A DNA stretch of 64,000 nt, from assembly GCA_002771135.1 (NCBI GenBank), contig PCXO01000005.1, positions 38,061 through 102,060 of the forward strand, given 5' to 3'. A program made the translations under genes and the position numbers. The stretch is from Candidatus Yanofskybacteria bacterium CG10_big_fil_rev_8_21_14_0_10_46_23 (GTDB lineage Bacteria > Patescibacteriota > Minisyncoccia > 2-02-FULL-40-12 > IGHO2-12-FULL-4). Each line of letters starts with the position of its first letter. Positions within the stretch are counted from its first letter, which is position 1. Below are positions 14,903 through 51,266 of the stretch, piece after piece. Below the pieces are notes generated by a model that saw nothing but the letters and a program-made list of their open reading frames with translations, did no database searches and was not told the DNA's origin.

Positions 14903-15769
14903 ATGGCGCTCGATTTTATCTCATTTTTTTGGTTTATTTTAGGCTTCGGATTAATTTTAATCGCGACCATTTTTGTTGTTCATGGCCGGGGATTTAAATT
15001 AAAGCCAAGCCCGAGACCAAATCTGCTTCACTTAAAGATAGCGACGGGGCAAATATCCGCGGGGACAGAAATTGAAAAAATGACTAACTTTCTCGAGACC
15101 CTAAGCGATCTTCATCGGCACGCGCAAGGTTGGAATGTCTTCCTTTTGGGCCAACCCTATTTAATTTTAAATTTAATCGTTCAAAAAAATGACTTAGCCT
15201 TTATCGTCTCTTTTCCTCCGGCTCAAAAGAGGTATCTCCAAAATAAATTAGAGCAAGCCTTCCCAAGAATCCGGTGGACAGAAACTGATTTGAGTTGGGA
15301 TGACCCCCCTGCCCAAGGAGCGGTTTTGACTCTCGCTCAAAACTCAAGCAAGACAAATGAGGATAAGGAAGCCCTGCCAGCGCCGGGCAGTCTTTTCGTT
15401 GTCCAAGAATTGCAAGTTATTCAGCAGAGTTTTGTCGATCATGAAAGACTATACCTTCAACTTTTGATTCGGCCGTCCCATCATAAAAAGGGGGCTCATC
15501 TCTATCAAACCAACTTTCGAATCCTTACTTTTCAAACAACTCCGGAGCGCGGTCGAGATCTGATCGGCAAAGTCGAACGGCTCTTGGAGAGAATCGTTTT
15601 TGCTCGAAAAATTCACTTTAAATTAAATTTTCCGTCGATGTCAAATTCTAATTCGCTTCAAGAAAATTGTCGAGATTATCGCTTTGATTTTAAAAATAGT
15701 TTTTATTTGACTGCCTCCGAGTTGGCCGCGGTTTATCATTTTTTTGACTCGGGGATAAAGCATGACTAA
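14903..15769 (+). CDS. hypothetical protein with an N-terminal TM anchor
   Basis: 288-aa ORF with no recognisable motif; overlaps the start of the next gene, so probably co-transcribed. Confidence 0.4.
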   Translation: MALDFISFFWFILGFGLILIATIFVVHGRGFKLKPSPRPNLLHLKIATGQISAGTEIEKMTNFLETLSDLHRHAQGWNVFLLGQPYLILNLIVQKNDLAFIVSFPPAQKRYLQNKLEQAFPRIRWTETDLSWDDPPAQGAVLTLAQNSSKTNEDKEALPAPGSLFVVQELQVIQQSFVDHERLYLQLLIRPSHHKKGAHLYQTNFRILTFQTTPERGRDLIGKVERLLERIVFARKIHFKLNFPSMSNSNSLQENCRDYRFDFKNSFYLTASELAAVYHFFDSGIKHD

Positions 15770-18266: not shown

Positions 18267-18337
18267 TGCCGGGTCGTCTAAAGGTAAGACTACGGTTTTT
18301 GGGACCGTCTATCGGGGTTCGAATCCCTGCCCGGCAG
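18267..18337 (+). tRNA. tRNA-Gln (anticodon TTG)
   Basis: Manual fold: acceptor TGCCGGG/CCCGGCA, D-stem GTCT/AGAC, anticodon stem ACGGT/ACCGT with loop TTTTGGG, T-arm CGGGG-TTCGAAT-CCCTG; no encoded CCA. Confidence 0.75.
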
Positions 18338-18374
18338 CTATCCTTCGCCAAGGCTTCGGAATAGCCTTGCTAAT

Positions 18375-31552: not shown

Positions 31553-31984
31553 GTGAGATCAAAAATCACAAAATTTATTGCCTTAATCAGCGGACTAGGG
31601 ATTATCGATACAGCCTATCTTTCTTGGCAACATTTTAATTATAACCCGCTCCAGTGCAGTTTCTTCAGTGGCTGTGACATTGTTACCACCAGTCGATTCG
31701 CCGTGATCGGGGGCATCCCCTTGGCTCTGATAGGTCTTTTGTTTTATGCGATTGTTTTTATTTTAAATCTAATTTCCGAAAAACATCGATCGGCTCAAAA
31801 GATTTTATTGATTTTAGCTACGATCGGTTTTGGCGTCTCTGTTGTTTTACTCTATCTTCAAATTTTTGTGATTAAAGCTTTATGTATCTATTGTTTAACC
31901 TCATTTGCAACCTCAACGCTGATTTTTATCGCTCTCCTTTCTTCTCTTCGAAAAAACAAAAACCCCATCGCCTCGACTAGATAG
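31553..31984 (+). CDS. vitamin K epoxide reductase (VKOR) family membrane protein
   Basis: 4 TM; loop cysteines CSFFSGC and active-site CxxC (CIYC) in the last TM. Confidence 0.6.
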   Translation: MRSKITKFIALISGLGIIDTAYLSWQHFNYNPLQCSFFSGCDIVTTSRFAVIGGIPLALIGLLFYAIVFILNLISEKHRSAQKILLILATIGFGVSVVLLYLQIFVIKALCIYCLTSFATSTLIFIALLSSLRKNKNPIASTR

Positions 31985-33008
31985 TCAATTGAATGGGGTA
32001 GAATTTTCTAAGGAAGCTCTTGACGCGTTCACCAAGAACTTCAAAGACCACATGATCCGGGTGGATTTTTTTCACGCGGATGGCCAACCCGGCGATCCGC
32101 TCTTCCGCCCCTGGGAGGGCCGTGGCCGCTAAAGCCAGAATCGGGTCCGCTTTAGGATCACAGTCGAAAATTCGACAAAAGTCCGACCACTTTTGGGAAT
32201 CCTCTTCCACGAATTTTCGGATCATATAAGCCAAGAGGTGTCGAGCAATATCGACCCTCCCGTTTTCCAGCCGAAGGTAGCTATAGCGAGCCACGCTTTC
32301 GGCTAGCTTTCTTAAATTAATGTACCGGAGGGGATCGGAAAATTTGCTCCCTCGATTCATTCCATAAACCTTGTCGGAGAATAGGAAGAATTTATGGAGC
32401 TGATAGTTCAAGATAGGGTTTTTAAGTTCCCCCCTTAAAATATCCGCCAGAAGAAGCGGGTCTTCCTTTAGGACTGAAAATCGCTTTCCGGAATAAATCG
32501 GGTAGCGTTTCGGCCAGCTTTCGATTACACGCCCCTTGCTTCGAGCGGTTACTTGGAATCTGGATTGCTCAATATCCAAACCGGGCCGGGCCCAGTTTTC
32601 GGCTTGGATATCGGCTTCGTACTGAAGCATCGCCAGAATATGCGGGCGAACAAGGCGGTACTGGTCCGGGGTAAGCCAAGATACTTTTTTCCTTGACGGG
32701 ACCCAGACCTTCCCCTCTGGCCCCTGCATATTGTTTGGGTGGTTGGCCCGTGTGGCCCCAATCCCAATTTCGCAGAGGTCAACAACTTTAGGAATAGCCA
32801 CCCCGTACCTTTTAGAGACCTTGATAAAATCAGGGGCGAGTTTTTGGGGTCTCCCGATGATGGTCATCAGGGCCAGGCGAGGCCCAGAGGAGTCTGCGAT
32901 CTTTATCTCAACCCCGTCGGGATCAGTGATCGTGATTAGATATCGACTTAAGTGGGAGACGAGCTCCAAGTCGCGTCTAACCTTTTGAAGCGTTTTTTGG
33001 GTTATCAT
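31977..33008 (-). CDS. hypothetical protein (343 aa), second gene downstream of the reverse transcriptase; candidate effector
   Basis: No recognisable motif; start is 12 nt after the stop of the 437-aa gene, so likely translationally coupled. Confidence 0.45.
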   Translation of the reverse strand: MITQKTLQKVRRDLELVSHLSRYLITITDPDGVEIKIADSSGPRLALMTIIGRPQKLAPDFIKVSKRYGVAIPKVVDLCEIGIGATRANHPNNMQGPEGKVWVPSRKKVSWLTPDQYRLVRPHILAMLQYEADIQAENWARPGLDIEQSRFQVTARSKGRVIESWPKRYPIYSGKRFSVLKEDPLLLADILRGELKNPILNYQLHKFFLFSDKVYGMNRGSKFSDPLRYINLRKLAESVARYSYLRLENGRVDIARHLLAYMIRKFVEEDSQKWSDFCRIFDCDPKADPILALAATALPGAEERIAGLAIRVKKIHPDHVVFEVLGERVKSFLRKFYPIQLTI

Positions 33009-33020
33009 TTCTGGCCCTCC

Positions 33021-34334
33021 TTAGAACATCCCAAACTGTTGTTTAGTTTCCAAAGCCTTTCCTTGGCTTTGGCCGAGAGCTCTAAGCTCGTCAGGCGCCA
33101 AGGCAAGAATTTGCCGATGTCGCTCTAACTTTTCTAGGGTCGCTTTTCCCGTTCGACGGCCCGGAAACGGAGAAATTCCTCGAAATGTTTGTTGACCAAA
33201 AGATGGCTTTCTTTTTATCGGAACGATAAACCCCAGCCGGTAATACGGGAAGGCGGGGACAACACTCCGACAAAGGTCAGCTTGAAAGACACAATCCGCG
33301 CAAGGTTCCCAATAGTTTTTTGGGATTAAACCCGGCTGGGCCAAAGCCTCCTCGGTGAAAAACATCCTCTGGCCATTGGGCCCGTTCCTACTTTGAGATT
33401 GAATATGAGCCGAGCAATCTGTTCGACTCTTAAACCAAATTGAGTAGGAAAGGCTGTAAATCGGCAGATCTAGCTTAGTGATCATCCCCATCGTCCAAAG
33501 CGCGATGGAATTGGTGATCTGCTCCGTGACCCGAAAAGCGGGTCTTCCTCGCAGAGCCTTGAATATAGCCCCGTTATCGACCCGATTTTTTTCTGAACCA
33601 ATCTGACCCGGCTGAAATTTTTGCCAGACCTTTTTGTTGATTTTAATTAACCCCAGCCCCAGAAAGAGCCGGATCATGTGAAAATCAACTGGCAACGGAC
33701 AGGGCATTTTCGGAATCAACTCCTGTTCCATATACCAAATCGCGAGCAAGGAGAAGATTTTTAGGCGCATGCCCCCAAACCGATCATGGCGATCAACAGT
33801 ATTATTGAACGCGGAGACAACGTTGTCTTGGCCCTGAAATATTTTCCGGGGGTCGCCCTCCCAATACTCCGACAAGCATCGGGCGTTGTTCCGCCAATTT
33901 TGAGTATGCTCTCGGATATTCATCGCCAGAGAGCCGTGGTTTGACTCGCCTTGAGTCGCTCCGCCAAGAGCGATAAGGCTGGCTTCTTCCAACTTCTGAC
34001 CGATCTCCGGCGAGCTCATCCGGATAATTTCTTCCGGCTCGAACATCTCCGGATAAATTTTACAAAGTATCCCCAGGGAGAAAAAGGGGTCATCACTGTT
34101 TATCCCGCCTCGCATAAAGAGCGCCACGAAAAAATAAAACAGCACCATTTTCCGAGGATCTCCTCTTAGCTCCGTTAGCGAATTGAGATAGAAAATTTCG
34201 GGAGGGACGGTAAGGCCGTAGCGACCTTCCCCCTCGCGATACTGTTTCTCCAAAACCCCAAAAACATAACTCGCCCGTTGGCGATTAAAGAACACCAACC
34301 CCGCGCGAGCTTGCGCCTTCATTTTATTGCCCAT
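33021..34334 (-). CDS. hypothetical protein (437 aa), first gene downstream of the reverse transcriptase; candidate effector
   Basis: No recognisable motif (MGNKMKAQARAGLVFFNRQRASYVF...). Confidence 0.45.
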   Translation of the reverse strand: MGNKMKAQARAGLVFFNRQRASYVFGVLEKQYREGEGRYGLTVPPEIFYLNSLTELRGDPRKMVLFYFFVALFMRGGINSDDPFFSLGILCKIYPEMFEPEEIIRMSSPEIGQKLEEASLIALGGATQGESNHGSLAMNIREHTQNWRNNARCLSEYWEGDPRKIFQGQDNVVSAFNNTVDRHDRFGGMRLKIFSLLAIWYMEQELIPKMPCPLPVDFHMIRLFLGLGLIKINKKVWQKFQPGQIGSEKNRVDNGAIFKALRGRPAFRVTEQITNSIALWTMGMITKLDLPIYSLSYSIWFKSRTDCSAHIQSQSRNGPNGQRMFFTEEALAQPGLIPKNYWEPCADCVFQADLCRSVVPAFPYYRLGFIVPIKRKPSFGQQTFRGISPFPGRRTGKATLEKLERHRQILALAPDELRALGQSQGKALETKQQFGMF

Positions 34335-34436
34335 GTGGTTATTATCCCTTCTGATTTTTTTAATGAACGGAAAAGTACACTGAGCTTAGCCTAACAGAAT
34401 AGACCCACTAGGCAAACAAAAAACCGCTTCTTGATT

Positions 34437-35423
34437 TTAGCGGTTATTTTCTGGATCATCTTGCAACTTTCGAAAAGAACGGAGAAGTTTTTCCTCGTGT
34501 TGGTTGGGGACCTGCCGCGCGACCTTAAGGGTGTGTAAGACGAGTCCAACCATTCCCCGAGCTCGAGCGATCTCGTGGGGATCTCGCGTTTCCAGAGCTC
34601 GATGGACCAGCCCCGCGATTTTACGGGTGTAATTTCGGGGGATGAACATCCGGCCCCCGTATTCAAGGCCGATCCCGGTTATTACAATCGGCCCCTTTTT
34701 TAAATCTTTGAACTGACACTTGCCGTGGTTAATCGGCAATCGCCACTGTTTCAAGGTTTCTCTAATTTCGCGACGCTTCTTTCGAGAAGGCCGAGATCGA
34801 AAAGAGAATACGAGATCATCAAGATAATGGGTGTAATGACCCGCGGAAATCATTTTAGAAATCCGCCAATTAACAAGGGTGCCAATATAGGCGTTGAAAA
34901 GATCGGGGGAGGCGGGGAGACCGACGGGCAACCCGGGAATCTCCGGCAAAAGAAAATACCTCTCCAGAAATATCGTCACCCCGGCTTCATCTTCTTCCGA
35001 AAAAGCTTCGAAGTGGGGGATTGCCCGAAGAAATTCGATCACAATCTTGATCATCAGACTGTGGTCAACTTGACTGTAGGCATCTTTCAGATCCACAACA
35101 TAGAAAAACCGGTTCCCCCGATGTTCAGATACCAGTCTCTGATGGGAAAACCCGGGGCGGGCGCCTCGGGCGTAATGTAAAGCCGAACTCGCTTTCTTGG
35201 AGACCCGCAAAAGATAAATGAGCCCTTTGTGGAGAAACCGGAGGGCCTCATTCGGAACGGTTAGCATTCTGACCTTCTTTTGGCCACTGAGGGGGTTTAT
35301 ATCTCGGATCGCCCATCTTTCCCATTTGGGAGGCTCTGAAAATGTCGGTCGGAGGCTAAGCTCTCCCGGCTTCGTGTAAGCCGATCGCTCTAATTCCGCC
35401 AGAAAATCGCTTATTTTATACAC
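34437..35423 (-). CDS. reverse transcriptase (compact, retron/DGR/defence-RT type; no maturase or endonuclease domain)
   Basis: AAGGAGAG RBS then GTG start; RT motifs YVVDLKDAYSQVDH, GLPVGLPASPDLFNAYIG, YTHYLDDLVF (YxDD); ITG triplet (PIVITGIGL) in the thumb, reminiscent of the retron VTG motif; 328 aa. Confidence 0.8.
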   Translation of the reverse strand: MYKISDFLAELERSAYTKPGELSLRPTFSEPPKWERWAIRDINPLSGQKKVRMLTVPNEALRFLHKGLIYLLRVSKKASSALHYARGARPGFSHQRLVSEHRGNRFFYVVDLKDAYSQVDHSLMIKIVIEFLRAIPHFEAFSEEDEAGVTIFLERYFLLPEIPGLPVGLPASPDLFNAYIGTLVNWRISKMISAGHYTHYLDDLVFSFRSRPSRKKRREIRETLKQWRLPINHGKCQFKDLKKGPIVITGIGLEYGGRMFIPRNYTRKIAGLVHRALETRDPHEIARARGMVGLVLHTLKVARQVPNQHEEKLLRSFRKLQDDPENNR

Positions 35424-35459
35424 TGCGATCTCTCCTTCTTTATTGTTTTTTTAAAAATC

Positions 35460-35650
35460 AGCAGGGGGAGTCTCGAACCCGAAACCGATTTTTGCTGAGG
35501 TTGCTAGGAAGCTCGGTGCGAAAAAACACCTTACTCTCCTTTTTGGATTCTAGCCGAACCCTACGCGCTATGTGAATAGCGCGCACCCGCTCTGAGCGGA
35601 TCGGCCCTCACTTAGATGGTTAAGGTTCTTCCGCGACTCCCCCCTGTCCT
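35460..35650 (-). ncRNA. structured non-coding region immediately upstream of the RT, bounded by inverted repeats; candidate retron msr/msd-like ncRNA
   Basis: CAGGGGGAGTC (35462-35472) is the reverse complement of GACTCCCCCCTG (35635-35646), one nt apart; internal hairpins (CGCGCTAT-TCAC-ATAGCGCG; CCGCTC-TG-AGCGG); GC-rich; no ORF. Confidence 0.45.
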
Positions 35651-35714
35651 TCCTAGACCGCTGAGGTGCTAGGAGGCTGATTTTATATTCGCACAATGGG
35701 GTAAATTTACAATA

Positions 35715-36086
35715 TTAGTTTGGATCGACACATTGAGCGCTGTCTTTAAACGGGGGGATTGTTTTTATGATATTACTCAGGGTACTGGTTAGGTCGGCCC
35801 GCTCATTTGATTGGATCAGCTCGTCGATGTGACCCTTGGAAGAATCAATGACATTTTTTAAAGTATCCGCTTGTTCTTCTAGGCTGAGATTGGCAAATTT
35901 CCCCTCATGGATAAGATTTTCAAAATCATTAATTTCGTTTTTAAAATCGGAAAGAATCGTCTTCTCTTTGGCGGCCGGATTTATGATGGTAATAGTTTTT
36001 TCTTTAGCCGCTTGGATAAAGTCGGGTTTTACAAAACCGATTACCAAACCAAGGGCGGCGAGACCAACTAAAAAGCGAATAATCAT
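35715..36086 (-). CDS. small secreted/membrane-anchored protein with an AAKEKTI tandem repeat (hypothetical)
   Basis: N-terminal signal/TM; AAKEKTITIINPAAKEKTIL repeat. Confidence 0.4.
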   Translation of the reverse strand: MIIRFLVGLAALGLVIGFVKPDFIQAAKEKTITIINPAAKEKTILSDFKNEINDFENLIHEGKFANLSLEEQADTLKNVIDSSKGHIDELIQSNERADLTSTLSNIIKTIPPFKDSAQCVDPN

Positions 36087-36167
36087 GGTTTTTATATATT
36101 ATCATTATTTGGGTGCAACGTCCTCTAAATTATAGTATAATGGTCGTGGTAAACGAGCCAAATTTTT

Positions 36168-37508
36168 ATGAAGAAACGGCCACAAAAAATTATCCTGACC
36201 GTCCTTTTTGTCTTGGGGCTAATCTTTTCGGGGCTAACCCCCGGATTTTCTTTGGCTGACGAGAGTCTCGACGCGATCAAGGCGCGCGAAGCGGAGATTC
36301 AAAGACTCCAAGAACAAATACAAGCCCTCCAGGGCCAGATCGACGCCAAGCAGGGTGTAGCTCGAACACTAGAAAATGAGATCTCCAGATTAAACGCTCA
36401 AATTTCCAAGGTTCAGCTGGGGATTCAACAAATTCAACTCTCGATTGACGGAGTTAACGGTGACATTGTCGGGATTAATCGAAAGATTCAAGATGGCCAA
36501 ACCACCATGGCGACGCACAAGGAAGCCCTCTCCGAAATAATCCGGGTTATTAACCAGCAAGATTCAGAAAATTTAACGGAGATAGTCCTGAAAAATGATT
36601 CTATTTCCGACTTCTTCTCAAACCTCCACGCCATTAAAACGACGCAGAACTCGCTCAAGATTTCAATTGATCGGATTCGCCAAATCCAAGCCGAACTGGA
36701 AGAAGACCAAGCGATTCTTCAAGACAGACGTGGTGAACTTGAACAACTGCAAACCTTTCAGGAAATAGAGCGCCAAGCCATCGCTTCGGCTCGGGGCACC
36801 AAAGATAAAATTTTAAGCCAAACCCGAGGCGAAGAGGCGCGTTTTCAAGATCTGGTTCAGCAATCGAAGCGAAATATCGAGGCCCTAAGAGCCGAGATCC
36901 AGTTCTTGGTCCAAAGTGGTATTACGGCGGAGGACGCGGTCAAATATGCCGAATTAGCGGCATTGCGAGTTGGCATTCGGCCGGCCTTCCTTTTGGCTCT
37001 TCTGGATACCGAATCTCGTCTGGGAGCAAACGTCGGAAAGTGTGTCATCGTTGACCAGACAAGCGGAACAACTCGACATGTCACTACCGGACAAATATCG
37101 CAAAGGGGGATACATCCGACCAGAGATTTGCCGGTCTTTCTCCAGATAACCAACGAGCTTGGTCTTGATCCCGGGCAAACGCCCGTATCTTGCAACCCCT
37201 ACGGCACCGCCGGTTGGGGCGGAGCGATGGGCCCGGCCCAGTTCATTCCCTCGACTTGGCTGGGCTATCGAGAAGCGGTATCAAAAATAACCGGCCGAAC
37301 CCCGGCAAACCCTTGGAATTTTGAGGATGCCTTCATCGCCTCGGCTTTATATTTAGCGCGTCGCGGAGCCGCCGCTCAAACCAGAGAAACCGAGATCGCC
37401 GCCGCTAAGGCTTACATCAGTGGTAGCCCAACTTGTAGTAGCTCAATTTGTAACTATTACGCCAACGCCATTCTCCAAAAAGCGGCCCAAATTGAACCGA
37501 CGTTGTGA
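36168..37508 (+). CDS. secreted coiled-coil protein with a C-terminal lytic transglycosylase (SLT/MltB-like) domain
   Basis: Signal peptide, about 250 aa of coiled coil, then ALLDTESRLG...GAMGPAQFIPSTW, typical of the SLT_2 / MltB lytic transglycosylase family. Confidence 0.65.
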   Translation: MKKRPQKIILTVLFVLGLIFSGLTPGFSLADESLDAIKAREAEIQRLQEQIQALQGQIDAKQGVARTLENEISRLNAQISKVQLGIQQIQLSIDGVNGDIVGINRKIQDGQTTMATHKEALSEIIRVINQQDSENLTEIVLKNDSISDFFSNLHAIKTTQNSLKISIDRIRQIQAELEEDQAILQDRRGELEQLQTFQEIERQAIASARGTKDKILSQTRGEEARFQDLVQQSKRNIEALRAEIQFLVQSGITAEDAVKYAELAALRVGIRPAFLLALLDTESRLGANVGKCVIVDQTSGTTRHVTTGQISQRGIHPTRDLPVFLQITNELGLDPGQTPVSCNPYGTAGWGGAMGPAQFIPSTWLGYREAVSKITGRTPANPWNFEDAFIASALYLARRGAAAQTRETEIAAAKAYISGSPTCSSSICNYYANAILQKAAQIEPTL

Positions 37509-49781: not shown

Positions 49782-49857
49782 TTGGAGCCGATGGTCGGAT
49801 TCGAACCGACGACCTCTACTTTACGAAAGTATTGCTCTACCAACTGAGCTACATCGG
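49782..49857 (-). tRNA. tRNA-Thr (anticodon CGT), CCA encoded
   Basis: Reverse complement folds: acceptor GCCGATG/CATCGGC, D-arm GCTC-AGTTGGTA-GAGC, anticodon loop TTCGTAA, T-arm GTCGG-TTCGAAT-CCGAC. Confidence 0.8.
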
Positions 49858-50094
49858 CACCATCTCGCTTTGATTAAGATCAAAGCTTCCTCCTTCGCCG
49901 GAGGCTTCGGAGGACAAGTCGGAAATAAGATAACCTTGCTTGTCATGCGAAGCCTCGGGCGAAGTCTGACCCGCCGAAGCTTGGGGATTAGTTCAATCGG
50001 AGGTGGGAGCTACCTCGGCCCTTTTTCGATCTTACCACATAAAATCTGATTTTCTTTTTAAACAATGGCTATTATGAGTATTTTTTCCCATAGG

Positions 50095-50340
50095 TTAAAT
50101 TGTCCGTAAGATTTGTTTGAGCTTTCTTCGCCCACCTCCATTTTTCCAGTATAGTTCTCTTTTTCTTGCCTCTATTGATGTATTAAACTCTTCAGAAAAC
50201 AATAGATCTAATGGGCGCCTGAATTTAGTAGATTTTACTTGTCCCGAATTATGTTTCTTTAACCTCTCCTCCAGATTATTTGTATAGCCGACATAAGTTT
50301 TGTTATCCTTATTGCTTTTTAGGATATAAATATAAAACAC
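50095..50340 (-). CDS. GIY-YIG nuclease family protein (small stand-alone)
   Basis: MFYIYILKSNKDNKTYVGYTNNLEERLKKHNSGQ...; lies between tRNA-Gly and tRNA-Thr. Confidence 0.75.
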   Translation of the reverse strand: MFYIYILKSNKDNKTYVGYTNNLEERLKKHNSGQVKSTKFRRPLDLLFSEEFNTSIEARKRELYWKNGGGRRKLKQILRTI

Positions 50341-50548
50341 TAATCTGTTGAGAGCGGGTCGCCCGTTTGGGGCGGACCTCGCTCAAAATTTGGAACAAAT
50401 TTTGAGCGGGTGAAGGGAATCGGTCACGAATAATCTTTCACTTCCGTTCAAGATTTTCTCGACCCCAGCTCGCTTGTTCCACCCTTTGACGGAACATCGC
50501 TCCGCTTTTCGATTCCTTTAACAACCAATAAATTGGTTGTTAACCCGG

Positions 50549-50619
50549 AGCGGGTGAAGGGAATCGAACCCTCATCACTAGCTTGGAAGGCTAGAGCTCT
50601 GCCATTAAGCTACACCCGC
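50549..50619 (-). tRNA. tRNA-Gly (anticodon TCC)
   Basis: Reverse complement: acceptor GCGGGTG/CACCCGC, anticodon stem CTAGC/GCTAG with loop CTTCCAA, T-arm with TTCGATT loop; no encoded CCA. Confidence 0.8.
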
Positions 50620-50808
50620 CTGCGCCCCATAAAAATCTCGAGGCTTCGGCGAGGCAGGCCCGTTAATTTTGGGCCCGCCAAATAATATCTTGAAATTATG
50701 CTATGAAAACTTTTATTTATCAACAGTGGGGCGAGCAGAACTACCGATTTCTGACAACTTGCACCCGCGCCTGGTGGCGCGAGTACTGCGCTCCCCTTCG
50801 GTCGCTTG

Positions 50809-50881
50809 TATCCCGGGCAGGACTCGAACCTGCAACCGACAGCTTAGAAGGCTGTTGCTCTTCCGATTGAGCTACCGGGAC
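50809..50881 (-). tRNA. tRNA-Arg (anticodon TCT)
   Basis: Reverse complement: acceptor GTCCCGG/CCGGGAT, D-arm GCTC-AATCGGAA-GAGC, anticodon stem ACAGC/GCTGT with loop CTTCTAA, T-arm GCAGG-TTCGAGT-CCTGC. Confidence 0.8.
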
Positions 50882-51098
50882 ATATATTTTTTGAATAACA
50901 TGACTCCCATTTAAAGTATATAAATTGTTAATAATCAAAACGCTTGCCCCCCGAATCCGCCGACTGGCGGAGAAGGGGGAAGCTACCGGGACATGTTCGG
51001 ATATTATACCACGAAAGACATTGCCGGTAAATGGAAAGCGTGGTAAAATAATTTAGATTTAGTTATACTAAATTCCGCTTAAATTTAAATAGTTCCCT

Positions 51099-51172
51099 CG
51101 GGCTGTAGCGTAGCGGTTTAGCGCGCCTGCTTTGGGAGCAGGAGGTCGTCGGTTCGAATCCGACCAGCCCGA
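51099..51172 (+). tRNA. tRNA-Pro (anticodon TGG)
   Basis: Acceptor CGGGCTG/CAGCCCG, D-arm GCGT-AGCGGTTTA-GCGC, anticodon stem CCTGC/GCAGG with loop TTTGGGA, T-arm GTCGG-TTCGAAT-CCGAC. Confidence 0.8.
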
Positions 51173-51190
51173 CAGGTCGAAAATCAAAAT

Positions 51191-51266
51191 GGTGGTCGTA
51201 GCTCAATGGTAGAGCACCGCTCTGTGGCAGCGGTGGTTGTGGGTTCGAATCCCATCGATCACCCCA
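51191..51266 (+). tRNA. tRNA-His (anticodon GTG) with encoded G-1 and 3' CCA
   Basis: G-1 pairs with discriminator C73; acceptor GTGGTCG/CGATCAC; anticodon stem CCGCT/AGCGG with loop CTGTGGC; T-arm GTGGG-TTCGAAT-CCCAT. Confidence 0.85.

Follow-up and report, generated by a model that had tools for sequence, protein, structure and literature searches.

A structured non-coding RNA family linked to retron-lineage reverse transcriptases in CPR bacteria

The segment at 35460-35650 of the window (the whole 64,000-nucleotide stretch of DNA that was analyzed) is part of a structured non-coding RNA (ncRNA) belonging to a family of ncRNAs linked to reverse transcriptases (RTs), as demonstrated by a covariance model (CM) match, three conserved motifs (i)-(iii), a long terminal helix and the MFE fold. 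Comparison of related loci establishes that the RNA family exists, how it folds, which strand is functional and that it is strictly linked to the RT. With moderate confidence, we read the segment as the cognate structured ncRNA gene of the adjacent retron-lineage RT, most likely working as a retron msr-msd RNA. A retron-type RNA is the best supported assignment because of the msr-msd-like layout and the RT lineage. The pair represents a previously uncharacterized two-part family of RT and ncRNA, apparently effector-less, in the ultra-small CPR/Patescibacteria.

The segment sits in a 291-nt gap (35424-35714) between two minus-strand ORFs. A preliminary description had called it ORF-free and richer in GC than its flanks. 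The ORF scan indeed found no ORF of at least 50 aa within 35424-35714, and the GC content of 35460-35650 is 0.55 vs 0.41 in the 100-nt flanks. The window mean is 0.447 (SD 0.058, 191-nt windows), and the segment ranks in the top 3.4% of the 191-nt windows, i.e., it is enriched, not extreme. The minus strand folds at -105.6 kcal/mol (z = -4.7), which none of 200 shuffled sequences matched. The plus-strand fold also beats shuffled sequence (z = -3.7), and it is the comparative evidence that identifies the minus strand, which is the RT strand, as the functional one. The ORF upstream of the ncRNA, at 35715-36086 on the minus strand, encodes 123 aa with a hydrophobic N-terminus; it has no convincing family match and is not conserved in the related loci.

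The search for known RNAs in 34000-37000 gave no Rfam match at E ≤ 1, and the comparison with curated retron models that had been proposed as a check was thus negative. ARAGORN detected no tRNA or tmRNA at the site, and the Rfam gathering scan of the whole window returned six tRNAs and nothing at the ncRNA site. The tRNAs for Thr, Gly, Arg, Pro and His form a cluster at 49783-51266 and tRNA-Gln lies apart at 18267-18338; their arrangement is ordinary.

Relatives were gathered from genome and metagenome collections, giving 53 loci, 43 of them unique, and the named hosts are nearly all CPR/Patescibacteria MAGs. The same RNA architecture is present on the RT strand in at least 29 of the 43 related loci. 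An nhmmer search with the window RNA alone found no relatives, and no upstream sequence was alignable to the window; even a sequence-only profile whose seed included the window gave it no better than E = 0.099. The window RNA is thus the most diverged of the family and could be placed only with the help of structure. On the RT strand, the relatives share (G/A)ACCTCAGCG (= GCTGAGGT), and the complement CGCTGA follows 30-70 nt further on. Exact CCTCAGC occurs in 21 of the 41 unique upstream regions and is the sole invariant block of alignment A2.

Folding and duplex searches gave a consensus that reads, from 5' to 3', often a leader hairpin, then arm5, motif (i) YUGAGG, P2, P3, the P4/P5 domain, motif (ii) ACCUCAGCG, arm3, and motif (iii) CGCUGA. 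The arm5/arm3 helix is 25-45 bp long, and in about 20 of 23 instances it is more stable than any of 30 shuffles; its sequences are unrelated between loci. P2 has 9 bp and a 4-nt loop in the consensus. Among 31 instances, 95% of the P2 cells are paired with both-side changes at 9/9 pairs, and for P3 the figures are 75% and double changes at 8/8 pairs. The covariation score of P2 and P3 together is 0.751 vs 0.304 when shuffled (0/500 reached it), and slid partners score at most 0.22. The many G-U pairs in P2/P3 indicate that the RT strand is the functional strand. In the relatives, P3 and motif (ii) are separated by the P4/P5 domain, which forms one closed stem-loop 37-232 nt long, with a closing stem GGUUC.../...GAACC and usually a pyrimidine tract inside; at least seven of the eight pairs of the P4 closing stem are formed in 19 of 31 instances (1.9 expected by chance). 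The msd-like stem-loop at L040:2915-3300 measures about 232 nt vs 37-126 nt in the other relatives, suggesting that this domain tolerates large insertions.

The three motifs are complementary to each other. Motifs (ii) and (iii) pair at all six positions in 24 of 30 instances (chance 4.7), and motifs (i) and (ii) at all five in 16 of 30 (chance 3.5). Compensated variants of the (ii):(iii) pairing (UCAGCU/AGCUGA, UCAACA/UGUUGA, UUAGCG/CGCUAA, and UCAGCA/UGCUGA) were found in L008, L013, L001b, L028, and the window, and a compensatory (i):(ii) change, UGAGA/UCUCA, in L012 and L009b. Motif (iii) is as conserved as motif (ii).

The CM of P2-P3 was built from 26 relatives with the window left out. 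In the 64-kb window it produced one significant match, at 35536-35587 on the minus strand (20.5 bits, E = 0.0024), and in the 43 loci it produced 38 matches, all on the RT strand and beside the RT. A second, weak match in the window, at 15124-15175 on the minus strand (11 bits, E = 0.58), has no RT near it and poor pairing, and is probably a chance match. The recurrence of the same architecture beside RT homologues, with strong covariation, answers the conservation check that the preliminary description had put forward, and supports, together with the RT lineage, its proposal of a stable structured ncRNA (a retron msr-msd or another RT-associated template RNA).

The MFE fold of the window RNA holds every helix of the family consensus. 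The parts of the RNA, in 5' to 3' order, and the RT gene are the following:

35453-35684, minus strand: whole predicted ncRNA, about 230 nt from the 5' leader to motif (iii), based on the MFE fold, the CM match and the motifs; ends approximate

35676-35684, minus strand: 5' leader AAAAUCAGC, for which perfect 9-bp pairing with the 3' tail GCUGAUUUU (35454-35462) is possible

35652-35673, minus strand: 5' hairpin P0, CCUAG-CACCUCAGCGG-UCUAGG, with a second exact ACCUCAGCG within its loop, which is the second direct-repeat copy of the preliminary description

35618-35646, minus strand: arm5, 5' strand of the terminal helix P1 (a1-like), including the inverted repeat

35605-35611, minus strand: motif (i) GUGAGGG, complementary to CCUCA of motif (ii) and containing the candidate branching G

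35587-35599, minus strand: small hairpin CCGCUC-A-GAGCGG, a window-specific insert between motif (i) and P2

35563-35584, minus strand: P2, 9-bp hairpin (CGCGCTAT/ATAGCGCG) with the loop UCAC, first msr-like hairpin

35545-35561, minus strand: P3 hairpin GGGUUC-GGCUA-GAAUCC, second msr-like hairpin, shorter than those of the relatives

35506-35540, minus strand: P4/P5 msd-like stem-loop AGGAG..GGUG-UUUUUUC-GCACC..CUUCCU, about 35 nt, the shortest of the family

35493-35502, minus strand: motif (ii) AACCUCAGCA, the ACCUCAGCG box of the family and, on the RNA strand, the first direct-repeat copy

35462-35486, minus strand: arm3, 3' strand of the terminal helix P1 (a2-like), from the inverted-repeat and duplex search

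35453-35463, minus strand: motif (iii) UGCUGAUUUUU, complementary to UCAGCA of motif (ii)

34437-35423, minus strand: RT gene (328 aa, GTG start, RBS GAAGGAGAG 6 nt upstream), directly downstream of the ncRNA

The three hairpins noted earlier are all present, CGCGCTAT/ATAGCGCG at 35564-71/35576-83, CCGCTC/GAGCGG within 35587-35599, and GGTG/CACC inside 35506-35540. The inverted repeat GGGGGAGTCTCG/CGCGACTCCCCC exists as well (35464-75/35632-43; 12 nt, 92%); it is part of the terminal helix, and the element is longer than 35460-35650, reaching approximately 35453-35684. Both copies of the direct repeat GCTGAGGT(T)GCTAGGA(A/G)GCT were found, at 35494-35513 and 35660-35678, but the second lies outside 35460-35650 and outside the inverted repeats that had been thought to enclose it. 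The repeat combines the family-wide motif ACCUCAGCG on the RNA strand with a second copy specific to the window, and it arises because this second exact ACCUCAGCG sits in the loop of the 5' hairpin. A leader hairpin ahead of the terminal helix is common in the relatives, but without ACCUCAGCG.

The arm5/arm3 duplex of the window has an energy of -34.4 kcal/mol and beats 30 of 30 shuffles. A G-to-A change in motif (ii) is compensated by a C-to-U change in motif (iii) (UGCUGA). The divergence of the window RNA, the largest in the family, consists of the extra small hairpin, the short P3, the shortest P4/P5 and the second exact ACCUCAGCG; the spacer between motif (i) and P2 also differs among the relatives. 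A P4 of the family type (GGUU..GCUAG with CUAGCAACC) was considered for the window and rejected, as it would disrupt the (i):(ii) pairing at a cost of +5.9 kcal/mol. The pairing of the 5' leader with the 3' tail (AAAAUCAGC/GCUGAUUUU) is not a family trait, since in the relatives a 5' leader partner for motif (iii) was matched at chance level only. The leader may even precede the true transcription start because of the -10-like TATAAA at 35682-35687, although to take this box for a promoter element is a guess from the sequence. AT-rich -10-like boxes are found upstream of the 5' hairpin in several relatives, and the promoter scan of the window region gave a single internal site, at chance level.

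The partner RT belongs to the retron RT lineage. It was recognized as Pfam RVT_1 at 9e-17, and when the family profile was compared with the sequences of solved structures in the PDB, the retron RTs Ec86, Ec83, Ec67 and Ec78 matched at 3e-29 to 1e-20 over profile positions 19-277 of 302. Other RTs in the PDB gave weaker matches, i.e., group II RT 1e-9, Drt3a 1e-6, Drt2 6e-7, the diversity-generating retroelement (DGR) RT 8ub7 0.007, and AbiK 0.01. In the alignment of hallmark motifs, NATPH of Ec86 corresponds to NVxxH of the family, VTG to I(T/N)G, and YTRYADDLTLS to YTRYLDDLTFS. The window RT itself has LVSEH in place of NAxxH, with the N lost, and keeps ITG. Both the sequence and the AF2 model (pLDDT 90) indicate that its catalytic YLDD motif is intact and that palm, fingers and thumb are all complete, and its ten best Foldseek matches are all retron RTs. 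In PADLOC, the best full-length RT matches are retron RT types; the RT_Ec107-like model gives E = 5e-7. None of the retron subtype HMMs reaches its curated cut-off, the NCBIfam St85 model scoring 62 bits vs a cut-off of 235.

A word-indexed search found only 25 homologues of the RT, and an exhaustive profile search found 510 cluster representatives (50% identity) at E ≤ 1e-30, each of them a single-domain protein about 300 aa long. An exact look-up of the window RT returned no sequence on record. Among the IMG/VR viral contigs there was one distant relative with 25% identity, which argues that the RT family is not phage-borne in that collection.

The arrangement of RNA and RT varies between loci. 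The same ncRNA lies downstream of the RT at L002:2120-2420, L008:1600-1900, L037:1170-1420, L012:7090-7340 and L010:6985-7250, and L005 has one copy on each side of the RT. In about ten loci the ncRNA closes with its own hairpin and U-run ahead of the RT. In a Kerfeldbacteria MAG (L017:4780-5960, JACPSJ010000005), three complete tandem ncRNA units precede one RT. Each unit has all three motifs, P2-P3 and a separate terminator made of a hairpin and a U-run, and a fourth, truncated P2-P3 lies just ahead of the RT start. Two CM matches each were obtained in L001, L004, L005, L007, L008 and L009. No terminator-like site was found in the window region, including ahead of the RT, and the window RNA is therefore probably co-transcribed with the RT.

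No conserved effector emerged from ORF clustering across the 43 loci, and Pfam and PADLOC analysis of 75 neighboring proteins identified housekeeping functions only (aminoacyl-tRNA synthetases, TatD, SMC, DnaB, FtsK). In the window, two ORFs of 437 and 343 aa (31977-34334, minus strand) follow the RT directly and share its orientation. They match nothing in Pfam, NCBIfam or PADLOC, and since they are not conserved as neighbors of the RT in related loci, a role as effector throughout the family is unlikely.

A retron msr-msd transcript is defined by terminal inverted repeats that hybridize, one to three msr hairpins, and one msd stem-loop (PMC7736814). In the window RNA, 35618-35646 pairs with 35462-35486, and the covarying P2 and P3 are followed by the single closed stem-loop of about 35 nt. 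From this layout and the RT lineage we infer that the RNA is reverse-transcribed, as well as a priming site and a branched msDNA product. The ncRNA would be transcribed from the minus strand, jointly with the RT or under a promoter of its own, and its ends would pair as the long arm5/arm3 helix, lengthened inward by UGAGG:CCUCA, in the manner of an a1/a2 stem. P2/P3 would be the RT-binding, msr-like part, and P4/P5, ahead of ACCUCAGCG, the msd-like template. Once bound to P2/P3, the RT would prime from the 2'-OH of a conserved G in UGAGG, at the inner end of the terminal helix, and copy P4/P5 into a short single-stranded DNA that remains joined to the RNA. The conserved Gs of motif (i) are at the right place for branching and the nucleotide after the helix is not conserved; the choice of a branching G within UGAGG is a guess from this position. 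The output may be defense through a trans-acting or host factor, or some other use of the msDNA.

Compared with canonical retrons (Retron-Eco1/Ec86, Ec83, Ec78/St85), homology spans almost the entire RT and includes the NAxxH-like, (V/I)TG and RYxDDLT motifs. The ncRNA likewise adjoins the RT on the same strand and has hybridizing terminal repeats and two short hairpins followed by a variable stem-loop. On the other hand, the CPR family is restricted to CPR bacteria, shows no Rfam or retron-type HMM match at family cut-offs, and has no conserved effector gene, the third part of a tripartite retron. In some loci its ncRNA follows the RT or is repeated in tandem arrays that carry their own terminators, and its three complementary motifs, above all the 3' CGCUGA, have no known counterpart in retrons. 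Most of these differences count against the retron reading, as do the (ii):(iii) pairing, which excludes the terminal helix in cis, and, in the window, the LVSEH and the msd-like stem of only about 35 nt. In the Retron-Eco5 branch there are orphan retrons, which consist of RT and ncRNA without an associated protein (PMC7736814). Retron-Eco5/Ec107 is thus a precedent for the effector-less CPR family, although a distant one as judged by the PADLOC match, with another host phylum and other RNA motifs.

In an alternative explanation that we find rather unlikely, though likelier than the other alternatives, the system is not a canonical retron, and the RNA is template or scaffold of the RT with a different chemistry. 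YUGAGG, ACCUCAGCG and CGCUGA would form a strand-exchange device that programs an unusual cDNA synthesis, with trans- or self-priming or template jumping to repeated cDNA; one RT would be served by interchangeable ncRNA cartridges, with the DNA product as effector and functional output. Motifs (i) and (iii) are partial direct repeats, and 166 nt separate the two ACCUCAGCG copies of the window. The direct repeats, (i) CUGAGG and (iii) CGCUGAGG-like, could allow strand exchange or template jumping, and in the window the jump could instead lead from one ACCUCAGCG copy to the other and yield concatemeric cDNA, as happens in DRT2; alternatively, the 3' motif annealed to motif (ii) could prime in trans. 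This explanation would account for a two-component system without a conserved effector, like DRT2 and DRT9, for the several ncRNA units per RT in several loci, and for the complementarity of both (i) and (iii) to (ii), which is far above chance and has compensatory variants. By geometric reasoning, the (ii):(iii) pairing would enclose arm3 and is incompatible in cis with the terminal helix; an alternative conformer, dimerization and priming are candidate roles for motif (iii). The direct repeats of the window, moreover, flank arm5 and the core, and in DRT2 short repeats abutting the basal stem serve template jumping (PMC11100668).

DRT2 (UG2) resembles the present system in that an RT and an upstream structured ncRNA suffice and that short repeats lie beside the basal stem, whereas the CPR family differs in RT lineage and RNA architecture and has no never-ending ORF. 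The RT is much nearer to retron RTs than to Drt2, Drt3 or DRT9. There is no conserved stop-free frame either, as the window RNA has stops in all six frames and open frames in the relatives are at chance level (8 and 9 of 23 vs about 7 and 5 expected). A DRT2/Neo reading was rejected for the lack of a conserved open frame and the wrong RT lineage (NCBIfam Drt2 17.5 bits vs a cut-off of 390). Against the different chemistry in general, the second ACCUCAGCG copy is specific to the window, and in many loci a terminator hairpin of about 35 nt after motif (iii) leaves no free 3' end without processing.

It is improbable that the RNA binds the RT without being copied, with a regulatory or scaffolding function such as control of RT activity or stability, or as an antitoxin-like partner. 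The conserved structure and the RT linkage do show partnership, not templating. To our knowledge, however, every characterized bacterial RT-ncRNA pair of this kind (retrons, DRT2, DRT9, DRT10) uses the RNA as template. The retained YLDD and full palm, fingers and thumb of the RT also speak against an uncopied RNA, and so does the stem-loop, which varies in length and sequence like a template cassette.

It is very unlikely that the segment merely terminates the upstream gene or serves as the leader (5' UTR) of the RT mRNA, with an attenuating or translation-controlling structure. The position of the window RNA, directly between the ORF 35715-36086 and the RT start with no terminator in between, would suit a 5' UTR. 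The RNA is downstream of the RT in five related loci, however, has its own hairpin and U-run before the RT in about ten, and stands in three complete units ahead of one RT in L017. The variable position and the own terminators thus rule out the terminator/attenuator reading, which the preliminary description had named as a possible refutation of its proposal. The window region lacks a terminator-like site, which argues against an upstream gene's terminator, and a 230-nt multi-domain RNA with covarying helices far exceeds an attenuator.

A template repeat of a DGR, the commonest RT system in CPR bacteria, would agree with the similar RT size, but it is effectively refuted by the absence from the 64-kb window of a second, VR-like copy of any part of 35424-35714 and by the wrong RT type (3e-29 for retron RTs vs 0.007 for the DGR RT 8ub7), and no conserved Avd-like or target gene was found.

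No description of retrons or of such an RNA in CPR bacteria was found in the searchable literature. A known group of similar description is UG38, which comprises small single-domain RTs of Class 2 UG/Abi and has been reported from no source other than CPR metagenomic bins (PMC9226505; Mestre et al. 2022). Our family, like UG38, is small, single-domain and CPR-restricted, a likeness by description only; it scores far better against retron RTs than against any of the UG/Abi models.

Retrons and newer defense RTs serve as immune systems and as genome-editing tools. Almost all of those known to us are from Proteobacteria and have an effector, and DGRs had been regarded as nearly the sole RTs of CPR bacteria. 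The present RTs form a sizeable family, with about 500 clusters at 50% identity (E ≤ 1e-30), in which a minimal RT of about 300 aa has a well-defined RNA partner. They offer a compact construct for asking what orphan retrons do, how priming is specified, what the three-way complementary motif is for, and whether several RNA cartridges can share one RT. The small RT with its short template could also suit applications.
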